This document shows, one piece after another, positions 4,371 through 63,995 of a stretch of DNA of 64,000 nucleotides. Both the position numbers and the translations under genes were made by a program. The notes under the pieces were generated by a model, which did not search any database, was not told where the DNA came from, and saw nothing but the letters and a program-made list of their open reading frames with translations. Every line of letters begins with the position of its first letter. Position 1 is the stretch's first letter. This DNA is from an uncultured Gammaproteobacteria bacterium (lineage in GTDB: Bacteria > Patescibacteriota > Patescibacteriia > UBA11705 > JABHMO01), in contig CAZAKN010000001.1 of assembly GCA_964486065.1 (NCBI GenBank), forward strand, positions 16,657 through 80,656, written 5' to 3'.

Positions 4371-4728
4371 TATGTCAATATTCCAAATAATAGTTTTAAT
4401 TTTAATGGCCGGAGCGATTTATAAAGCGGCTAAAAGATTGAGTAAAAGAGAAATCTCTGTTTGGCTTTTTTTGCTCTGGCTGGGAGTCTGGTCCGTCGCC
4501 GCGGTAGTTGTTATTTTTCCCGAGCTTTTGAGTTGGGTCGCCTTTAAACTTGGAGTCGGTAGGGGAGTGGATTTGGTTCTGTATTTATCTTTGTTTATTA
4601 TTGTTTACACTTTATTCAAAATGAATATCAGGTTGGGAAAAATTGAAAAAGACATAACTCGCGTTGTTAGTCGTCACGCCATTGAAAACGCGCGTCAGAC
4701 TGATGAAGTGATGAAAAAGGAGTCTTAG
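4363..4728 (+). CDS. DUF2304-family small membrane protein (GT2-associated)
   Basis: 121 aa with three hydrophobic helices. It overlaps the GT2 stop by 8 nt, the classic GT2-DUF2304 pairing. Confidence 0.55.
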   Translation: MIDMSIFQIIVLILMAGAIYKAAKRLSKREISVWLFLLWLGVWSVAAVVVIFPELLSWVAFKLGVGRGVDLVLYLSLFIIVYTLFKMNIRLGKIEKDITRVVSRHAIENARQTDEVMKKES

Positions 4729-4731
4729 TTT

Positions 4732-5802
4732 ATGAAAAAAGCCGGAGTGATTTTGGTTAATTATAAAGATTATGCGAAAAGATTTTTAACGGAGTGCCGA
4801 GATTCTTTGCGAGCGCAAAAATTGAATAGCGTGGAAATGCGCGTGATTATAGTGAATAACGCGGCCACTCCCGAAACCGCTAATTATTTACAAACCGAAT
4901 TTCCCGAAGCCGTGATCATTTCGCGCTCTGACGGAAATTACGCCGCCGCCAATAACGCGGGGATCACCAAAGCCGTGGAATTGGATTGTGACTATTTTGT
5001 TATCGCCAATATGGATACGCGTTTTGATGAGAACTGGCTGAGTAACTTAGTGAAAGTCGCGGATTCGGATGACAAAATCGGTATTGTTCAATCAAAAATA
5101 TATTTATATCCGAAAAATGATGTTGAGTGGAAATGCCCGAAAATCAATTCATTGGGAAATTTGTTTCATTATTTGGGATTTGGTTTTACTCAAGGTTATA
5201 ATGAAATTGATTTCTCGGAGCTAAATGCGCGTGAGATTGAAGGCTATGCCAGTGGATGTTCTTTACTGATGAAAAAAAGCGTTTGGCAAAAAATCGGTGA
5301 TTACAACGAAGAGTTTTATATGTATCATGATGATTTGGAACTTGGTTGGCGAGCGAAGTTGGCCGGTTATAAAATATATCTGGCGCCAGATTCGGTGGTT
5401 TATCATAAATATGAGTTTCAGCGCAGTGCGCGCATGATTTATTTTCAAGAGAGAAATCGTCATTTGTCAATATTTACATTTTATCGTATCCCGACTATAC
5501 TTTTAATAATGCCCATGCTCTTGATTCTACAAGTTGCCATGATGATTTATGCCATTCTGGGCGGTTGGATTACGAAGAAGTTGAAAGCGGATTTATACTT
5601 TTTAAAACCCGGTTCTTGGCGAAAAATATGGAAATTCAGAAAGCAAGTAAAAAAAATCCGCGTATTATCGGACAGGGAAACGGTTGAAAACTTTCAAGGA
5701 AAAGTTCTATTTCAAGAAATCAATAATCCGGTTTTGGAAAAAATCGGTAATCCGTTGATGGAACTGTATTGGAAAATAGTAAAAAAAATAATTTTTTGGT
5801 AA
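4732..5802 (+). CDS. family 2 glycosyltransferase with C-terminal membrane helices
   Basis: VILVNYKD...VIIVNNAATPE together with DxD (YHDDLELGW), followed by C-terminal TM segments. Confidence 0.75.
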   Translation: MKKAGVILVNYKDYAKRFLTECRDSLRAQKLNSVEMRVIIVNNAATPETANYLQTEFPEAVIISRSDGNYAAANNAGITKAVELDCDYFVIANMDTRFDENWLSNLVKVADSDDKIGIVQSKIYLYPKNDVEWKCPKINSLGNLFHYLGFGFTQGYNEIDFSELNAREIEGYASGCSLLMKKSVWQKIGDYNEEFYMYHDDLELGWRAKLAGYKIYLAPDSVVYHKYEFQRSARMIYFQERNRHLSIFTFYRIPTILLIMPMLLILQVAMMIYAILGGWITKKLKADLYFLKPGSWRKIWKFRKQVKKIRVLSDRETVENFQGKVLFQEINNPVLEKIGNPLMELYWKIVKKIIFW

Positions 5803-8734: not shown

Positions 8735-8808
8735 GGGAGCTTAGTTAAGTGGTATAACATCGGTCTCCAAAACCGAGGTCGGGGGTTCGATTCCCTCAGC
8801 TCCTGCCA
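8735..8808 (+). tRNA. trnW: tRNA-Trp (anticodon CCA)
   Basis: Cloverleaf by eye: acceptor GGGAGCT/AGCTCCT (one G-U pair), D-arm GTTA..TAAC, anticodon stem TCGGT/ACCGA with loop CTCCAAA (anticodon CCA), T-arm GGGGG-TTCGATT-CCCTC, discriminator G and encoded CCA. Confidence 0.9.
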
Positions 8809-27320: not shown

Positions 27321-27977
27321 TTAATATGGTTCTGATTCACCGAGAACTTCCACGCGGATTTTGCCGATTTTATCGGTTAAACATTTGATGTGGATGATCC
27401 CGGGTATTATTTGCGAGAGCGTGTCATTTTTTAAAAGACAAATTAGATCCATGGGATTGTCAGTGAACGGTTCGCTTTCGCGAATGAACATTAATGTTTG
27501 ATGATTTTCACTATGGCGATGCATGCGTTGCAGAGTTTTAACATCAATATTATGATGGCGACTTAAATGCAAGGTGAAAGGCGCCAAAGTATGCGCGTAT
27601 TCGGGAACGGGAAACGGAAATAAAATGTGTTCCCTGAAAACACCGCGTTGCATACTGTCCAAATCTTCAATGGTGCATAGTAGTCCGCGAGTATAGTATT
27701 GCCAATCTTCATAATTTTCAAGCATCAATCCGCCATTTTCTTTTGTGGCGAAAAGTTCCGCTCTTACTTTGTGAAGATGGCTTTCATTCAGAAGATCAAT
27801 CTCATTAAAGCCCAAGCTGACTGCGAAACTGATTTTCGCTTTGGGAACAATCAGTGAAAAACCTTTCAGTTTACTATTTTGCTCGTGTTTTTCCGGGAAA
27901 AGGTTAAAAAATGATTCCCAAAAACAATCATCAATATTGACTTTACGATAAAGCATCCGTAAATATCTGCCGTCCAT
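27321..27977 (-). CDS. hypothetical protein (no recognisable domain)
   Basis: The start was placed at the internal Met (MDGRYLRM...) preceded by GGAGG; the ORF-track start is 28007. It lies downstream of an intrinsic terminator and so is a separate transcription unit from its upstream neighbour. Confidence 0.45.
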   Translation of the reverse strand: MDGRYLRMLYRKVNIDDCFWESFFNLFPEKHEQNSKLKGFSLIVPKAKISFAVSLGFNEIDLLNESHLHKVRAELFATKENGGLMLENYEDWQYYTRGLLCTIEDLDSMQRGVFREHILFPFPVPEYAHTLAPFTLHLSRHHNIDVKTLQRMHRHSENHQTLMFIRESEPFTDNPMDLICLLKNDTLSQIIPGIIHIKCLTDKIGKIRVEVLGESEPY

Positions 27978-28043
27978 CGTCAACCTCCATGTTTGTAAAT
28001 GTTCCAATTAATAATATATGTTTTTACTCGGTTTTTGTCAATT

Positions 28044-28073
28044 AAAAAGTCCCCTTCGCGAGGCGAAGGGGAC
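28044..28073 (-). terminator. rho-independent terminator (11-bp perfect GC-rich stem, GAG loop, T5 on the minus strand)
   Basis: Plus strand reads AAAAA-GTCCCCTTCGC-GAG-GCGAAGGGGAC, directly after the stop of the minus-strand gene 28080-28940. Confidence 0.75.
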
Positions 28074-28079
28074 TGCTGA

Positions 28080-28940
28080 TCACTTCTTGTTGCCGAGACC
28101 GAAGGCGGCCTCAAGACCCTGACGGATCTTGTCGTGCTTCAATGCACTTTTGGAGACCGGCTTTTGTTCAGCCAGTTTCCACTGCAGGAACATCATGTAT
28201 CCCGCGATTTGATGAATCCGGAACTTCCTTCCCGAATTCATTTTGTTGAAATGATGCACATACTGCACATCGGAATTCAACACCAAGGCGACCTCCTGAT
28301 CGCCATGCCGGTAGCGACTGACCGCTACGGCCGGGAGACGCGGAATTTCCTTTTTCCGCCCCTTTTTTACGAATTCCTTGATCAGGAATTCGTGAAAAGT
28401 CTCGCCAAACACCTTGGCGGTGGGAATTTCCACTTCCAAAGTGTACTTTTCCCATTCTTCCTGAAACTTTTTGGCGTTTCGCTGAAACGCCTTCAAGGCT
28501 TTTGGCGAAAGCTCGCCAACCAACGCTTGAATCTCCTCATGAAGATTCTCCAAGAACTCCACCGGCTTCATCTTGCCGATGGGCGCTTCCAGTGCCGCCT
28601 GGACTTGTTTGTAACGTTCGTGCTGGTAATCCAGCACATCGCCCAGGCGTCGAGCTTCGTGGTTGCTGAACTTGATCTGGGGATCTTCGTTCAGCTTGAC
28701 CAGCAGGGCCCGAACATTGTCGTTCCTGACCAGGATTCCGACCGTCTTGATCATGCCGTCTTTGGTGAATCCATCATGGACATACACCACCGAGGCATCC
28801 TTCACCGAGTCAATCTTTTCCCCGGTGATTTTGTCGGCCAGGAAATCATCCCGGCCCATCAGATCGGTCAGAGCTTTCCCTTCCGGGTAGCCCCAGTTAT
28901 TGTGGATCTGGTCCACAAATTCAATTCTTTTTCCGGCCAT
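28080..28940 (-). CDS. hypothetical protein in a GC-rich insertion (no recognisable domain)
   Basis: The start was placed at the internal Met (MAGKRIEFVDQ...) with a strong AAGGAGG 7 nt upstream; the ORF-track start is 29015. Codon usage and GC are visibly higher than in neighbouring genes. The 280-aa antisense ORF 28134-28976 is a typical GC-rich shadow. Confidence 0.5.
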   Translation of the reverse strand: MAGKRIEFVDQIHNNWGYPEGKALTDLMGRDDFLADKITGEKIDSVKDASVVYVHDGFTKDGMIKTVGILVRNDNVRALLVKLNEDPQIKFSNHEARRLGDVLDYQHERYKQVQAALEAPIGKMKPVEFLENLHEEIQALVGELSPKALKAFQRNAKKFQEEWEKYTLEVEIPTAKVFGETFHEFLIKEFVKKGRKKEIPRLPAVAVSRYRHGDQEVALVLNSDVQYVHHFNKMNSGRKFRIHQIAGYMMFLQWKLAEQKPVSKSALKHDKIRQGLEAAFGLGNKK

Positions 28941-29072
28941 GATGGCCTCCTTTCTTTCTTTTGGTTTGTGGGTTGAAAAAAAACAATGATTAATGGATAA
29001 TATCATATTTTTCAAAATAAGTCAAATGTAAAATACGATATTTTCCTAAATTTAGATAAATAATACCTTTAA

Positions 29073-49212: not shown

Positions 49213-49710
49213 TTAAGCCTCAATTTTAATTTTTTTAACCGCTTCCGGGAAAAACGGGATAAAAATTGAGCCGATTTTCAAAAGTACGGACGCGGTTACC
49301 GATTGAGCAACTTGCTCCACAAGCCATGGATGGATGGGATATTTACCTACAAAATATAGTAAAATAGCGGACACGAAAATACCTTCAACTATACCGAGGA
49401 TCAAGCCAAGCAAGCTGTCAAAAGTGGATAAAAATGGAATAATCATGATAATTTGAAAAATTTTACCGAACAGCCAAAAGACGATTCCGGTCAACTTCAC
49501 GCTAACTCCGAAAATAATAATAAAGGAAATAATATTGGCAAAATTTCCCCCTCCGAAAAAATCAGCCAACCAAGGGAAAAAGCGTCCCGCCAATAAAGTG
49601 GCTATAAATAATCCGACTAAAGATCCCAAAGATTCCAAAAATCCCTTCTTATAACCGAAAAAAGCAAAAATCAAAATTAAAGCGAATAATAAATAATCCA
49701 AAGTGATCAT
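49213..49710 (-). CDS. cvpA: CvpA-family (colicin V production) membrane protein
   Basis: Four TM helices and the DYLLFALILIFAFFGYKKGF N-terminus typical of CvpA. The start was moved to the ATG preceded by a TATAAT-like box; the ORF-track TTG start is 49746. Confidence 0.55.
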   Translation of the reverse strand: MITLDYLLFALILIFAFFGYKKGFLESLGSLVGLFIATLLAGRFFPWLADFFGGGNFANIISFIIIFGVSVKLTGIVFWLFGKIFQIIMIIPFLSTFDSLLGLILGIVEGIFVSAILLYFVGKYPIHPWLVEQVAQSVTASVLLKIGSIFIPFFPEAVKKIKIEA

Positions 49711-49828
49711 ATGCTGAATTATACCCGTTTTACCCGCAATTCGCAATTTATTTAATCAACAGTAATTTTTTATTAAAATTTCATCATGCTTATTTATACT
49801 GTAATCAGATCTTTACAAAGGAGATAAC

Positions 49829-50314
49829 ATGATCCAGAAACTGCAACCCGTTAATCTCCCCATCAAAATATTGCATAGAATCAACACCATTGGGAACATT
49901 TTGAAAGCAAAAGCAATGAACAAAAGAACTTATCGTGGTTTGAAAATTGAAATATCCAAGTTGGAAGTAAAGTTTCCCGAACACAATTTATTACAAGAAA
50001 TCCGCGCATCGTGGCTTTTATTGGGAATTGAAAACTTTCATTTAAGATTCTCTTTACCCGTTAATAATGGTGAAATACGCCTTGAAAAAAATTATCCCGG
50101 ATTTCCGCCATGGTTACTTCTAAACGAAGAAATAATTTTGAGAAATTTCAATCACAAAAAATTGGGATCTCATTATCATAATCTTTACAATAAGTTATAT
50201 TTCTTGCTTTATGTGATAAAAGATCAAGCGACCGAACACGCCGGCCGAGAAACCCTGCATTATTTATATTGGCATAAATTGGTGGAGAAACTGGAAAAAA
50301 ATAAAACCCGTTAA
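49829..50314 (+). CDS. hypothetical protein
   Basis: 161 aa, no motif recognised. It has its own terminator. Confidence 0.4.
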   Translation: MIQKLQPVNLPIKILHRINTIGNILKAKAMNKRTYRGLKIEISKLEVKFPEHNLLQEIRASWLLLGIENFHLRFSLPVNNGEIRLEKNYPGFPPWLLLNEEIILRNFNHKKLGSHYHNLYNKLYFLLYVIKDQATEHAGRETLHYLYWHKLVEKLEKNKTR

Positions 50315-50405: not shown

Positions 50406-50858
50406 TTAATTATACTTTTTTACTCCCACGCCGCGTTGTTCAACTCTTCGCTGTTTCTTGCGTCCGACTCTTAATCTGACCAATTCTTTTTCTATCTTGG
50501 TGCTGATCATGGCAAACTCGCGAGAATCAACACTTCTTTGATGTTTTAATTCTTCAGCTTTTTTAATAGCCACTTCAGCTCTTTCCAAGTCAATTTCTTC
50601 GGATCTTTCCGCCGTATCAGCCAGAACCACCACTTTTTCTGAAAGCACTTCAATAAAACCTCCGGAAACAGCCAAAGAAAAAGTTTCATCCCCCTTGGTT
50701 ATTTTAATTTCACCGGATACCAAAACCGCGATTAAGGGAACATGATTTACTAAAACCGTTATTTCTCCACGCAAAGTCGGCAAAGTTATACTGTCAACTT
50801 CATCCTTGAAAACCACTCTTTCCGGTGTGGCTATTTTAAAATTTATTTTATTTGACAT
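50406..50858 (-). CDS. atpC: F1Fo ATP synthase epsilon subunit
   Basis: N-terminal beta sandwich (ATPERVVF...VTLPT..GEITVL) and a C-terminal helical hairpin. Confidence 0.9.
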   Translation of the reverse strand: MSNKINFKIATPERVVFKDEVDSITLPTLRGEITVLVNHVPLIAVLVSGEIKITKGDETFSLAVSGGFIEVLSEKVVVLADTAERSEEIDLERAEVAIKKAEELKHQRSVDSREFAMISTKIEKELVRLRVGRKKQRRVEQRGVGVKKYN

Positions 50859-50954
50859 ATTTGCAAATTAAAATTGGATATTGGTAATTGGTATTTTGCG
50901 ATCTAAACATTTGAAATTTGGAAATTAAGGCTTTTAATCTTAAATCATTTATTT

Positions 50955-51791
50955 TCAGAGTTCCGGATCTACAATTCCTTCCTCCAGGGAATTATCCTCG
51001 GTGTCTATATCTTCTTTTTCAGTGTTTTCTTCATCAAGATCATCTTCATTTTCAGGTTCCGGTTCTGCTTCTTGCGGACGCAACTCTTCCCATTCCCCCT
51101 CTGTCAGCTTTACCAATTCAACACTTTGGATTACCACATCATTCAACGGATGATTATCAGCGTTCACTTCCACTTTTTCAATTTTTTCAACTATATTAAA
51201 ACCTTCTATCACATGACCGAAATTCGTGTGTTTTCCATCCAACCACGGAGTCGCTTCCTTGGTTACGATGAAAAATTGCGAACCATTAGTATTGGCTCCG
51301 CTATTGGCCATGGCCATTGAACCTCGGACCAATTTTATATCATTGATTTCATCGGGAAATTTATAACCCGGACCACCGCGTCCATCATCCGACCAATCAT
51401 CATCTTTACTGTTCGGATCACCGCCTTGAATCATGAAATCATTCATTACTCGGTGAAATTTTATGCCATCGTAAAAACCGAGTTTTGCCAAATTCATAAA
51501 ATTATTAACCGTATTCGGAGCTTCGGGGATAAAAAAAGCAACTTTGAAATTTCCGTAATTGGTATTTATCCAAGCGCCGTCATATTCATTGATCAAGGCT
51601 TCAAACTTACTATTATCAATTGCCTGCGGTTTGGTCGCTTGCTTTTCTTGTTTTATTTTTTCCAATTCGGGTTTGGCACTTTTATCCAAATCAACTTGTT
51701 CGTAACTTTCAATTTTATCTCCGGTGCAACCGGTCAAAAAGAAAACGCATAAAAACAATGTTGAGAGCAATTTTATTCGCATAGACTTCAA
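50955..51791 (-). CDS. ppiB: cyclophilin-type peptidyl-prolyl isomerase, lipoprotein, with acidic C-terminal tail
   Basis: Lipobox LTGC, a cyclophilin core (HRVMNDFMIQGGDP...GSQFFI...LDGKHTNFGHV), and a C-terminal D/E-rich low-complexity region. Confidence 0.85.
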   Translation of the reverse strand: MKSMRIKLLSTLFLCVFFLTGCTGDKIESYEQVDLDKSAKPELEKIKQEKQATKPQAIDNSKFEALINEYDGAWINTNYGNFKVAFFIPEAPNTVNNFMNLAKLGFYDGIKFHRVMNDFMIQGGDPNSKDDDWSDDGRGGPGYKFPDEINDIKLVRGSMAMANSGANTNGSQFFIVTKEATPWLDGKHTNFGHVIEGFNIVEKIEKVEVNADNHPLNDVVIQSVELVKLTEGEWEELRPQEAEPEPENEDDLDEENTEKEDIDTEDNSLEEGIVDPEL

Positions 51792-58441: not shown

Positions 58442-59272
58442 TCACAAATTAAACAATTTTTTAGCGTTATTGTCAGTAATTCGCATCATATCTTCGTAGG
58501 AAGAACCGCGCAATTCAGCGATTTTACGAATCACATATTCCACGAAAACCGGTTCATTTCTTTTGCCACGATGCGGTTCCGGAGTTAAATATGGACAATC
58601 GGTTTCCGCCAAAATTCTATCTTCCGGCATGGACTTGATAATTTCATGTAATTCCTTCGTGGCATTTTTAAAAGTTATCACTCCGGTAAATCCCAAGTAA
58701 TACCCCATGCCCAATAATTTTTCAGCTTGCTCCCGATTACCGGCGAAACAATGCACGGTGGCGGATTTATCCAATGGATTATCTCTCAAAATTTCAATCA
58801 AATCATCATACGCTTCCCGACAATGAATAATCATGGGCAACCCCAATTCATTGGCCAGATCAATATGCTTTTTAAAAACCTCTTGTTGCAAATCTTTTTG
58901 TTCTTTCAAATCTTCATCCGCTAAATGATAATAATCCAAACCATTCTCCCCGATCGCCACCACCTTGTCCGAAAATTGAGCCAAATTTTTATATTTTTCA
59001 TAATCAAAACTTTCCGCGCGACTGATAATCTCCACGGTTTCTTTCGCATCAACTTTTTCCACTATTTTTCTTTGATTTAAATGAATCGGATGCAAAGCCA
59101 CGGACGCGTAAACATTTTCATATTCATCCGCCGTTTTAACCGCTCGCTCACTCGTGCTGAACTGCGAACCGACATTGATAAATGAACAATCTTTTTCCAT
59201 GCATCTTTTAATCACATCTTCATAATCATTTTTAAAAGGAAAAAAATTAACATGGGCGTGAGAATCAATCAT
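58442..59272 (-). CDS. tatD: TatD-family metal-dependent DNase/hydrolase
   Basis: MIDSHAHVNF N-terminal HxH motif and TIM-barrel metal ligands (IIHCREA, ETDCPYL). Confidence 0.9.
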   Translation of the reverse strand: MIDSHAHVNFFPFKNDYEDVIKRCMEKDCSFINVGSQFSTSERAVKTADEYENVYASVALHPIHLNQRKIVEKVDAKETVEIISRAESFDYEKYKNLAQFSDKVVAIGENGLDYYHLADEDLKEQKDLQQEVFKKHIDLANELGLPMIIHCREAYDDLIEILRDNPLDKSATVHCFAGNREQAEKLLGMGYYLGFTGVITFKNATKELHEIIKSMPEDRILAETDCPYLTPEPHRGKRNEPVFVEYVIRKIAELRGSSYEDMMRITDNNAKKLFNL

Positions 59273-59439
59273 ATTTTAAAATTATTTTTAAAACATTTAA
59301 CACTATACAATTTTTTGCACAAGTTATCAACAAAAAATTATTGTCTGTATTTTTCAATATGATATTATGAAACTGCGATTAGCGCATAAACGAACATTGT
59401 TAAACCAATTTCATTAATATACCAACGGGGAGGTATCCA

Positions 59440-60156
59440 ATGAATCACAGTTCGGAGATTATCAAGATTCCTGCAGAAGAAGTGGCGGAAATAGTCGGTG
59501 GCAAGCAAATGCTTGAAAAGCAAATGCGTCGCGCCGGCGTAATCCGTGGCTACGACTTCAATCCAACAGGTACGCCTTACGACGGCGAAGCCAGATTGGT
59601 CGCCAGATTCATTAATGGAGCCTGCCTTTTTTATTTTCGCAAGGAGGGTGAAACATACTTCTACACCACGCAAGAAGACTTGGAAAAATATGTTGACATT
59701 TCTTTGTCCAACTCGGCAAATCCGAAACAGAGTTTTCTTGATAGAACATGGCCGGCAACTCCCAAGGCTCCTTTTTCCAGTCGTTACGACCGAGAGCTTA
59801 TGATTTTGCGCCAACATCGCAAAGAAGGCACCATCTACAAACCGGATCGTAAACAGACAATTCTCAATTCCGCTGAAGCGGCTGAATTATTCGGTGGCAA
59901 AGACAAACTGGAAGAACATTTAGTCAGCTTGGGACTGAAACGAGGCTCAGCCTCCGTTTACCCCATGCTCATCGGCGCTTTCTGCGAAGGCAGTGCGTTT
60001 ATCAGCTACAAACGCTCGCCCAGCGGAGGAACATTCCAGTTCTTCGGTGGCAAAAAGATTTGGCAAAATCTGCTGGCTACCATCTATTCGGCAAACTGCC
60101 GTCCCGAACGTTTCAAGCCGGTTCGTCCAATTTCCGCCAGAGTGTCTCGTGGCTGA
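59440..60156 (+). CDS. GC-rich hypothetical protein built from two copies of an unrecognised ~60-aa domain (paralog 1)
   Basis: Internal repeats AEEVAEIVGGKQMLEKQMRRAGVIRGYDFNPTG...ARFINGACLFYFRKEGETYFY and AEAAELFGGKDKLEEHLVSLGLKRGSASVYPMLIGAFCEGSAFISYKRSPSGGTFQFF. RBS GGGGAGG. The antisense ORF 59365-59817 is a GC shadow. Confidence 0.55.
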   Translation: MNHSSEIIKIPAEEVAEIVGGKQMLEKQMRRAGVIRGYDFNPTGTPYDGEARLVARFINGACLFYFRKEGETYFYTTQEDLEKYVDISLSNSANPKQSFLDRTWPATPKAPFSSRYDRELMILRQHRKEGTIYKPDRKQTILNSAEAAELFGGKDKLEEHLVSLGLKRGSASVYPMLIGAFCEGSAFISYKRSPSGGTFQFFGGKKIWQNLLATIYSANCRPERFKPVRPISARVSRG

Positions 60157-60169
60157 CCCTAATTATCAT

Positions 60170-60203
60170 GGGAGATTTCACCTCGTGAAATCTCCTTATT
60201 CTT
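60170..60203 (+). terminator. hairpin (11-bp perfect stem) plus T-rich tail between the two paralogs
   Basis: GGAGATTTCAC-CTC-GTGAAATCTCC followed by TTATTCTT. Confidence 0.5.
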
Positions 60204-60252
60204 AAAACAATTTTTCAAATATCTTTTGTTCTTTTTATCTTCGGAGGTCGTA

Positions 60253-60930
60253 ATGCTGAGAACCAACACCATGGCTTTGCCAAAGGATTACTTGAAAACA
60301 ATTTTTCCCGGCAAAAATCAATTAACCGAACACATGACCGACGCGGGAGTCAAGCGAGGACAGGATTTTCGCGGACCAATAGCCAAACTGAAGGGCGAAA
60401 TCATGTTGTATTTCGTCCGTGATCAAGCAAAAAACAAATCCCGCTTCTACGCAAAAGGAAGGGATAAATCCTTGCTGTATCTTTTCCATAACTTGGAAAA
60501 AGAAGTGGGCATGGTTTACTTGGACGAATCATGGATTCCGGACAAGAAAAGAGCTTCTTCCGTGCCACAAATTCCTTTGAATCACGGTATCAGGCATTTT
60601 GATTGTCAACAAAAGGAAATCATTCTCAAAGGGGGCGAGGTGATTCCATTGTTTAAGAAGCATGAGAGATTGACCAGGCAAATGGAAAAAGTCGGTGTCA
60701 AACGCGGTCAAAATTTCAACGGCTTGGTGGCGATCTTCAATTTCGGTGCTCACTTGCATTATTACCGTGATGAAGAAAGAAACAACACTTACTTTGTCAT
60801 CAAAATCAAGGAAAAAAGCGCATTTGACAAACTGAAGGATCTGCTTTCAAACTTGATGCAGGGTATTACTCCGCAAGAAGATCTTTTCAATTCATGGCCG
60901 GCCAACACCCAGACGGCTTTGGCCTGCTAA
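60253..60930 (+). CDS. GC-rich hypothetical protein built from two copies of the same ~60-aa domain (paralog 2)
   Basis: Repeats KTIFPGKNQLTEHMTDAGVKRGQDFRGPIAKLKGEIMLYFVRDQAKNKSRFYA and EIILKGGEVIPLFKKHERLTRQMEKVGVKRGQNFNGLVAIFNFGAHLHYYRDEERNNTYFVI. The start was set at the ATG after GGAGG; the ORF-track start is 60226. Confidence 0.55.
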   Translation: MLRTNTMALPKDYLKTIFPGKNQLTEHMTDAGVKRGQDFRGPIAKLKGEIMLYFVRDQAKNKSRFYAKGRDKSLLYLFHNLEKEVGMVYLDESWIPDKKRASSVPQIPLNHGIRHFDCQQKEIILKGGEVIPLFKKHERLTRQMEKVGVKRGQNFNGLVAIFNFGAHLHYYRDEERNNTYFVIKIKEKSAFDKLKDLLSNLMQGITPQEDLFNSWPANTQTALAC

Positions 60931-60957
60931 AAAGGCGTCCACATGGACGCCTTTTTT
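60931..60957. terminator. bidirectional intrinsic terminator between the paralog cassette and convergent metG
   Basis: AAAGGCGTCC-ACAT-GGACGCCTTT followed by TTTAAT, with an A-tract upstream that serves the minus-strand metG. Confidence 0.8.
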
Positions 60958-60983
60958 AATTCTACAAAATTTTAAAACTATTA

Positions 60984-63725: not shown

Positions 63726-63995
63726 TTATTTTTTATTGTTTTTCAAACTTAAATCATACATTATGCTTTCACTTTTCTGCCAATTCTTTTTCGCTTGATC
63801 AAATTTGGTACGCAGATAACTGACCAAATCCAATTCAATTAACTCGCTGATCACTTCGGCAATGGCTTCTTGACCATTTTTCACTTTTTTCATATCTCCT
63901 TCCGTAGCCCACACGACCATTTTGCGCAAAACTTCTCCGGTGAAATCGCTCAACCCTCCGATATATTCATCAGCCTCAATTTTCACGCCATTCAA
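63726..63995 (-). CDS. hypothetical protein (start close to the window edge)
   Basis: 89-aa ORF. The Met at 63995 is 5 nt from the window end, so the N-terminus is uncertain. Confidence 0.35.
   Translation of the reverse strand: MNGVKIEADEYIGGLSDFTGEVLRKMVVWATEGDMKKVKNGQEAIAEVISELIELDLVSYLRTKFDQAKKNWQKSESIMYDLSLKNNKK

Follow-up and report, generated by a model that had tools for sequence, protein, structure and literature searches.

Between tatD and metG, in a 64,000-nucleotide stretch of contig CAZAKN010000001.1 (the whole of which we call the window), two plus-strand genes encode paralogous proteins in each of which an unrecognized domain occurs twice. We think it probable that this gene pair is an accessory cassette, gained by a Patescibacteria chromosome through horizontal gene transfer (HGT), forming a unit of its own and kept under selection. 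The host chromosome is ABY1-like and belongs to the Falkowbacteria/Magasanikbacteria/Uhrbacteria neighborhood. The tatD-metG spacer and the genes that border it contain the following features, in which module boundaries come from module alignments and a shuffle test:

58442-59272, minus strand: tatD (PF01026, E 7e-77)
59428-59434, plus strand: Shine-Dalgarno (SD) site of gene 1, GGGGAGG, read from the sequence
59440-60156, plus strand: gene 1, 238 amino acids (aa), isoelectric point (pI) 9.5, no transmembrane segment, two modules
59452-59781, plus strand: module 1A, aa 5-114 of gene 1
59848-60153, plus strand: module 1B, aa 137-238 of gene 1, the most diverged copy, with a basic C-terminal tail
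60243-60247, plus strand: SD site of gene 2, GGAGG, read from the sequence
60253-60930, plus strand: gene 2, 225 aa, pI 9.6, no transmembrane segment, two modules
60262-60564, plus strand: module 2A, aa 4-104 of gene 2
60607-60927, plus strand: module 2B, aa 119-225 of gene 2, the copy used for the structure model
60984-62489/62549, minus strand: metG (tRNA-synt_1g)

An earlier note on this DNA, made from the letters and a list of open reading frames (ORFs), had described two same-strand genes between tatD and metG, each with its own SD site. The ORF coordinates confirm the first point, and direct reading of GGGGAGG and GGAGG confirms the second. The program-made ORF list begins gene 2 at an upstream TTG (60226); its start is most likely the ATG at 60253, five bases past GGAGG. 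Both proteins are held in the databases without a name.

The gene 1 and gene 2 proteins align collinearly by BLASTP (E 6e-9, 23% identity) and also align when shifted by one domain (E 4e-8). All pairs among the four modules exceed 500 shuffles (z 6.9-14.9), and the range becomes z 5.1-16 overall once the two modules of P0003, the single outside homolog described below, are added. Within gene 1, some likeness is visible even in the DNA, where stretches of 44 nt lying 396 nt apart match at 73%. The shifted alignment and the shuffle scores bear out the earlier claim that each protein holds two copies of one module. The length of ~60 aa given for that module does not stand, as the repeat unit measures ~100 aa when the third helix and the D-x-S/T-W-P motif are included. 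Its aromatic strands are followed by a 15-residue helix and then, in most copies, by D-x-S/T-W-P/I/V.

Five columns do not vary among the six modules (L22, G30, R33, G34 and R54); they correspond to a leucine in helix 2, a G-x-x-R-G motif after helix 2 and an arginine ending strand 3. The six-module alignment contains no conserved catalytic-type His, Asp, Cys or Ser. As a pattern, the family is defined by a tandem pair of ~100-aa modules that share L-x7-G-[VL]-x-R-G and a Y/F-x-R strand end, and by D-x-[ST]-W-[PIV] after helix 3 in most copies; each of the three proteins has two domains according to the family hidden Markov model (HMM). With P0003 as the outgroup, A modules are nearer to P0003-A and B modules nearer to P0003-B in 4/4 comparisons, and therefore the two-domain layout predates the gene duplication. 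By this grouping, genes 1 and 2 are old paralogs that arose from whole-gene duplication of a two-domain ancestor.

Relatives outside the locus are extremely few. A word-indexed search of 5.8 billion clusters returned self matches only, and when 1.84 billion representatives were searched exhaustively with a HMMER profile, a single new member came up, P0003 (two modules, E 4e-20), which gives a family of three clusters (P0001/P0005, P0002 and P0003). P0003 is encoded on a contig of 55-60% GC in a gene context that differs from the cassette's. There (L003, 140-2621), a 115-aa ORF and then a 383-aa T2SSE ATPase (E 9e-54) come after it; these two ORFs, split by an assembly gap, are probably one PilB/GspE-like gene. 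P0003 thus adjoins a type II/IV secretion ATPase and has neither a paralog nor a toxin beside it, so no neighborhood is conserved. In Foldseek, the module matched the N-domains of FlaI and EpsE weakly (probability 0.23-0.41). We treat the link to the T2SSE ATPase as coincidence, since these scores fall short of significance and the surroundings of the cassette contain no gene of this kind.

Searches of family, PDB-sequence, phage and plasmid collections gave no meaningful match. Pfam-A hmmscan of both proteins and six single modules gave 0 families at E<=10, and an NCBIfam scan of the proteins and single modules gave nothing meaningful. Likewise, no component model of PADLOC-DB 2.0 matched either protein at E<=10, PHROGs v4 produced only scattered noise at E~0.1 that was different for each module, and the PDB sequences held no match to the six-module profile. 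By tblastn, neither the 50,697 INPHARED phage records nor the 72,556 PLSDB plasmids contained a match at E<=1. Scanning the contigs of IMG/VR and the JGI metagenomes for peptide patterns revealed no further member, nor did searches of genome contigs with gene 1 and of metagenome contigs with P0003. A degenerate L-x3-M-x3-G-V-x-R-G-x-[DN]-F-x-G scan returned 10 metagenome matches, all of them chance (<=10 bits), and 0 viral ones. The profile searches yielded no housekeeping-domain match, which leaves the module unplaced, as the earlier note had it. That note had also considered and dismissed Bro-N, KilA-N, AntA, WGR and KTSC, and we agree, given that the Pfam models gave nothing at E<=10.

Some candidate relatives were rejected along the way. 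Matches to Cas6 and LolA (E 0.5-0.95 with the four-module profile A1) vanish with the six-module profile A2 and are noise. P0004 (1324 aa, E 1.9e-4) had looked like a six-copy relative, but its score is the sum of twelve repeats of 0-4.5 bits each and is gone with the six-module profile.

The population is found in samples SRR7048223/4 and ERR4921265. The locus is present in three read sets, two of which are identical to the window. The third, strain L085, shares 99.63% identity with the window over 13.66 kb and differs from it by 43 substitutions. Gene 1 differs by 2 synonymous and gene 2 by 3 synonymous changes, with 0 replacement changes in either gene. Given 21% synonymous sites, 5/5 synonymous changes have a neutral P of ~4.5e-4. 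The stop codon of gene 1 is altered from TGA to TGC in L085, adding two residues. The flanking housekeeping genes differ by 15 synonymous and 8 replacement changes, against 5 and 0 in the cassette, and thus both genes are at least as constrained as their neighbors. This substitution pattern argues that genes 1 and 2 are translated and kept under purifying selection.

The same strain comparison exposed changes elsewhere. A 161-aa ORF without a Pfam family (49829-50314, plus strand) accounts for 13/43 substitutions; 8 of them replace amino acids, and L085 also has a nonsense codon there, E57*. In contrast to the cassette, this ORF is, on that record, unconstrained or decaying. An 8-bp indel at 50913-50920, GAAATTTG in the window and missing from L085, is intergenic, with genes at 50406-50858 and 50955-51791 on its two sides.

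Structure prediction gave a confident model for one module. The AlphaFold model of module 2B has a predicted local distance difference test score (pLDDT) of 83.3 and a predicted template modeling score (pTM) of 0.75, with all five models at 77-83. Its elements run β1 (3-7), α1 (9-16), α2 (19-28), β2 (37-44), β3 (49-55), β4 (60-67), α3 (70-84) and β5 (94-96). Single-sequence AlphaFold of full-length gene 2 reached a pLDDT of 38, usable for secondary structure only, and recovered the same element order in both halves. Foldseek with the module model against the PDB and the viral predicted structures of BFVD found nothing at E<=1e-3. The module is therefore best described as a predicted α/β domain, β-α-α-β-β-β-α-β, without a detectable relative in the sequence libraries, the PDB or the viral predictions. 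Relative to these collections, both the family and the fold are new.

Signals for expression surround and divide the gene pair:

59302-59330, minus strand: promoter-like TTGATA-17-TATAGT (10/12, consensus match only), facing tatD
59341-59368, plus strand: promoter-like TTGTCT-16-TATTAT with an upstream TG (consensus match only), ~70 nt before gene 1
60171-60195, plus strand: hairpin between gene 1 and gene 2, loop of 3, weak T tract (TATTCTTAAAA)
60204-60216, plus strand: 13-mer AAAACAATTTTTC, copy 1, 37 nt upstream of the gene 2 ATG
60295-60307, plus strand: 13-mer AAAACAATTTTTC, copy 2, within codons 15-19, 43 nt past the gene 2 start codon
60929-60956, both strands: putative bidirectional intrinsic terminator (AAAAAGGCGTCCA / TGGACGCCTTTTT) serving gene 2 (plus) and metG (minus)

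As read from these signals, the succession of promoter-like site, SD, gene 1, hairpin, SD, gene 2 and terminator makes the pair its own transcription unit. The description of the unit as self-contained, with a perfect 11-bp hairpin between the genes and a bidirectional terminator at its end, therefore gains support from each of these elements. The arms of the hairpin (60171-60181/60185-60195) form 11 perfect pairs, or 12 counting a flanking G-U, and its folding energy is -16.5 kcal/mol (z -5.6 relative to shuffles). With its weak T tract, it may serve as a partial terminator or RNA stabilizer, in which case more gene 1 than gene 2 product would be made. The terminator has perfect 13-nt arms (60929-60941/60944-60956), preceded by an A-run and followed by a T-run. 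It folds equally well on either strand (-18.6 and -19.1 kcal/mol) and can end transcription of both gene 2 and metG, which runs toward it. The predicted promoter-like site at 59302-59330 would allow tatD to be transcribed independently of metG. An Rfam scan placed no RNA family at the gene pair.

The 13-mer AAAACAATTTTTC has two exact copies in the whole window, and both flank the start of gene 2. Its 9-nt core, ACAATTTTT, has a third local copy at 59307-59315, in the gene 1/tatD promoter region; 3/7 copies of the core in the window are inside the 1.7-kb cassette region. The AAAACAATTTTTC sites could be operators, or they could be relics of duplication.

The composition of the cassette sets it apart from the rest of the window. 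GC content is 38.8% in the window and averages 39.2% (standard deviation [sd] 3.6) in its ORFs, compared with 48.7% in gene 1 and 42.8% in gene 2. At third codon positions (GC3), the values are 0.51 for gene 1 and 0.52 for gene 2, and the ORF mean is 0.406 (sd 0.064). The earlier note had called both genes GC-rich. This holds for gene 1, which lies at +2.6 sd; for gene 2 plain GC shows no clear excess, and the deviation appears mainly at GC3. Part of the GC excess of gene 1 is at codon position 2 (0.444) and reflects amino-acid composition. Once conditioned on the amino-acid sequence, synonymous codon usage still deviates, with z 4.4 for gene 1 and 3.4 for gene 2 (median gene, 0.76), ranking the two genes 2 and 3 among 55 window genes. 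The dinucleotide delta* of the cassette, 0.124, is the maximum of 250 windows of 1.5 kb. Thus, codon statistics differ from those of the flanking genes, and GC3, codon z and the top delta* together support the claim that the composition is foreign.

Related genomes point to the same conclusion. We scanned for MetG with one genome per species, which gave 80 Patescibacteria loci; the best MetG identity among them is 61-62% over the full length and 71% over a partial match. In 48/80 loci, tatD follows metG on the same strand, with a gap of 6 bp to 4 kb that is <300 bp in 17/48, and a single cvpA separates the two genes in many others. Using hmmsearch with all filters off, we found no module homolog in any of the 80 loci or in the rest of the window. 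The metG-tatD pair is conserved and lacks the cassette in relatives, and therefore the cassette interrupts this pair, in the opposite orientation.

The position of cvpA itself differs among these genomes. The gene (Colicin V production, PF02674) lies between metG and tatD in L016, L026 and others; here the cassette fills that junction, and a cvpA-like gene is found at 49213-49746 on the minus strand, beyond the ATP synthase operon.

Acquisition by HGT would account for both the composition and the distribution of the cassette. The donor was probably a higher-GC organism, judging from the base composition of the genes, and the 55-60% GC of the contig that carries P0003 would fit such a donor. 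After transfer, gene 1 would have been less ameliorated than gene 2.

The sequences predict two soluble, basic, cytoplasmic proteins, each with two equivalent domains. We tentatively suggest that these proteins bind rather than catalyze, with a phosphate-bearing ligand, such as RNA or DNA, as the likeliest partner. A binding role is favored because conserved Gly, Arg and Leu residues lie in a loop and at a strand end while catalytic-type residues are missing, and because the domain is tandem-duplicated in all three known proteins. Each protein would then offer two equivalent sites, in which the G-[VL]-x-R-G loop that follows helix 2 combines with the Arg after strand 3, both of them invariant.

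Several points weigh against these interpretations. Transfer is inferred from composition and patchy distribution only, and with the nearest sampled relative at just 61-62% MetG identity, an older lineage-specific origin is possible. The cassette borders show no mobility gene and no clear target-site duplication. A 9-mer, TTTTAAAAC, does stand just outside each end (59286-59294 and 60970-60978) and may be a remnant of a target site or att site or a chance occurrence, but it is weak evidence in AT-rich spacer DNA: it has 7 copies on the plus strand of the window, and its palindromic core occurs 38 times. We regard it as a common AT-rich spacer word and did not use it as evidence of target-site duplication. 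The AlphaFold run on module 2B drew on a 6-row alignment in which 4 rows come from this very locus. As for binding, a pI >=9.5 is common to 17% of window proteins, which makes the charge argument weak; the fold search supplied no significant neighbor to back the role; and the AAAACAATTTTTC repeat near the gene 2 start is only suggestive.

Provided that both the fold prediction and the orphan status stand up, the cassette defines a new protein domain family under selection. Its four diverged copies at one locus plus two elsewhere form an unusually clean natural set, well suited to structure determination and to binding screens. The cassette is also a concrete case in which a reduced Patescibacteria genome gained genes, at a metG-tatD junction that is otherwise conserved across the phylum. 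A bolder and unlikely proposal is that the pair and P0003 are the first sampled members of a new α/β fold of tandem (pseudo-dimeric) nucleic-acid- or nucleotide-binding proteins, spread by HGT among unrelated uncultured bacteria and with a function specific to episymbiosis. If so, they might regulate or protect transcripts, regulate their own expression through the AAAACAATTTTTC sites or have an undescribed role in conflict or defense. Orphan genes are very common here and the family is tiny (3 clusters/1.84 billion). The cassette is a reasonable candidate for follow-up rather than a surprise.

Lineage-specific ORFans form a large share of the gene content of Patescibacteria (the candidate phyla radiation [CPR]), where orphan genes are commonplace. 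The cassette genes resemble them as unnamed hypothetical proteins amid the housekeeping genes of a small genome. Unlike most ORFans, the pair combines demonstrable purifying selection and a four-fold internal repeat with a homolog in another lineage and a structure predicted with confidence. It is nonetheless conceivable, if unlikely, that these are native, fast-evolving, lineage-specific genes that were never transferred, and that relatives lost them or diverged beyond recognition; amino-acid content and expression level would then underlie the deviant composition. No close relative has been sampled (the best full-length MetG being the 61-62% match), the metG-tatD spacer varies across the phylum over the range given above, and the codon position 2 component of the gene 1 GC excess is driven by amino-acid composition. 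However, a native origin must contend with GC3, amino-acid-conditioned codon usage and a dinucleotide signature that are all deviant. The occurrence of P0003 in a 55-60% GC organism leaves two choices, transfer or an origin so old as to be implausible, after which nearly every lineage would have lost the genes.

The earlier note had suggested a defense module, an immunity-protein array or a phage-derived regulator. Tandem divergent arrays of this kind are typical of orphan immunity genes, and the cassette resembles such arrays and other accessory islets in its compact form, foreign composition, patchy distribution and divergent tandem paralogs with their own signals. It could accordingly be pictured as an immunity or inhibitor array, a toxin-antitoxin module or a two-component defense system. 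We find this quite unlikely. The pair consists of two-domain basic proteins with no cognate toxin, no known immunity family and no defense-island neighbors. We detected no toxin, nuclease, ATPase or other effector gene within or adjoining the pair, and Pfam, NCBIfam and PADLOC, the last with 0 matches at E<=10, assign neither protein to a toxin family. Genes 1 and 2 are paralogs rather than a toxin and antidote of different folds, and the outside homolog is single, beside its T2SSE ATPase. At three clusters among 1.84 billion representatives, the family is also far too rare to reveal any defense-island association.

The module might instead be a very diverged version of a known α+β binding fold, namely a type I KH domain, the folate-binding subdomain of GcvT/YgfZ/MnmE-N or PAS, which would make the two proteins ordinary binders of RNA or of small ligands. 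Type I KH domains are often found in tandem in proteins that bind RNA or single-stranded DNA, and their order (KH_1, PF00013; β-α-α-β-β-α) comes close to that of the module, which has an extra strand. The turn between helices 1 and 2 of the module also carries Gly and Lys, and the KH domains of PCBP superpose on the module over 55-64 residues at 2.5-2.8 Å. However, the GXXG loop of KH is missing, the six modules having GGKQ, GGKD, PGKN, KKHE, GSKE and DDKT in its place. We used hhalign to compare module alignment A2 with six aligned KH_1 domains, all of which Pfam assigns to PF00013; the register was as expected and the probability 1.7%. With this score, no GXXG and no Pfam match, we rejected KH membership, and a loose topological likeness remains. 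For the tetrahydrofolate fold of GcvT, YgfZ and MnmE-N, only a subdomain matches, below significance; the module has neither a profile match to the GcvT/YgfZ folate-binding family (PF01571) nor a significant superposition on it. Those proteins are also three-domain enzymes or GTPase modules, whereas the cassette has tandem 100-aa repeats. PAS domains open with two strands and have a five-stranded sheet, an order different from that of the module, and gave no significant score and no Pfam PAS match. Overall, we consider a diverged known fold improbable.

A remnant of a phage or mobile element, in the form of regulators or morons left by a decayed prophage, would explain the foreign composition, the reverse orientation inside a conserved gene pair and the TTTTAAAAC repeats bordering it at 59286 and 60970. 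This too seems very improbable. The neighborhood is made up of the ATP synthase operon, tatD, metG, rsmI and others, with no toxin, integrase or phage gene nearby in the window around the pair, and the sole tRNA of the 64 kb is at 8735. INPHARED, PLSDB and IMG/VR hold no relatives by tblastn or motif pattern, PHROGs gave no consistent match and BFVD no structural one. Finally, purifying selection indicates current use, not decay.

That the ORFs are spurious, lying in a non-coding region or an RNA element, would agree with the lack of any annotation or name for the proteins, but this reading is effectively refuted by a four-fold protein-level repeat whose DNA has diverged, a homolog in another organism at 24-28% identity, the 5 synonymous and 0 replacement changes between strains, correctly spaced SD sites, a confident fold prediction and the lack of an Rfam family.

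The cassette may not be the only foreign islet in the window. Beside gltX, at 27321-29015 on the minus strand, lie two ORFs of 228 aa (27321-28007) and 311 aa (28080-29015). The larger has no Pfam match and is the strongest codon outlier of the window (z 12.6, GC 0.497, GC3 0.638), and the codon usage of the smaller is also deviant (z 2.7). By composition, this pair may be a second such islet.

Among other housekeeping genes of the window lies a gene of the Translin family (PF01997), which is uncommon in bacteria. It occupies 63726-63995 on the minus strand, where it runs off the window, and the same gene is found in L001 at 4601-5182, encoding 193 aa.

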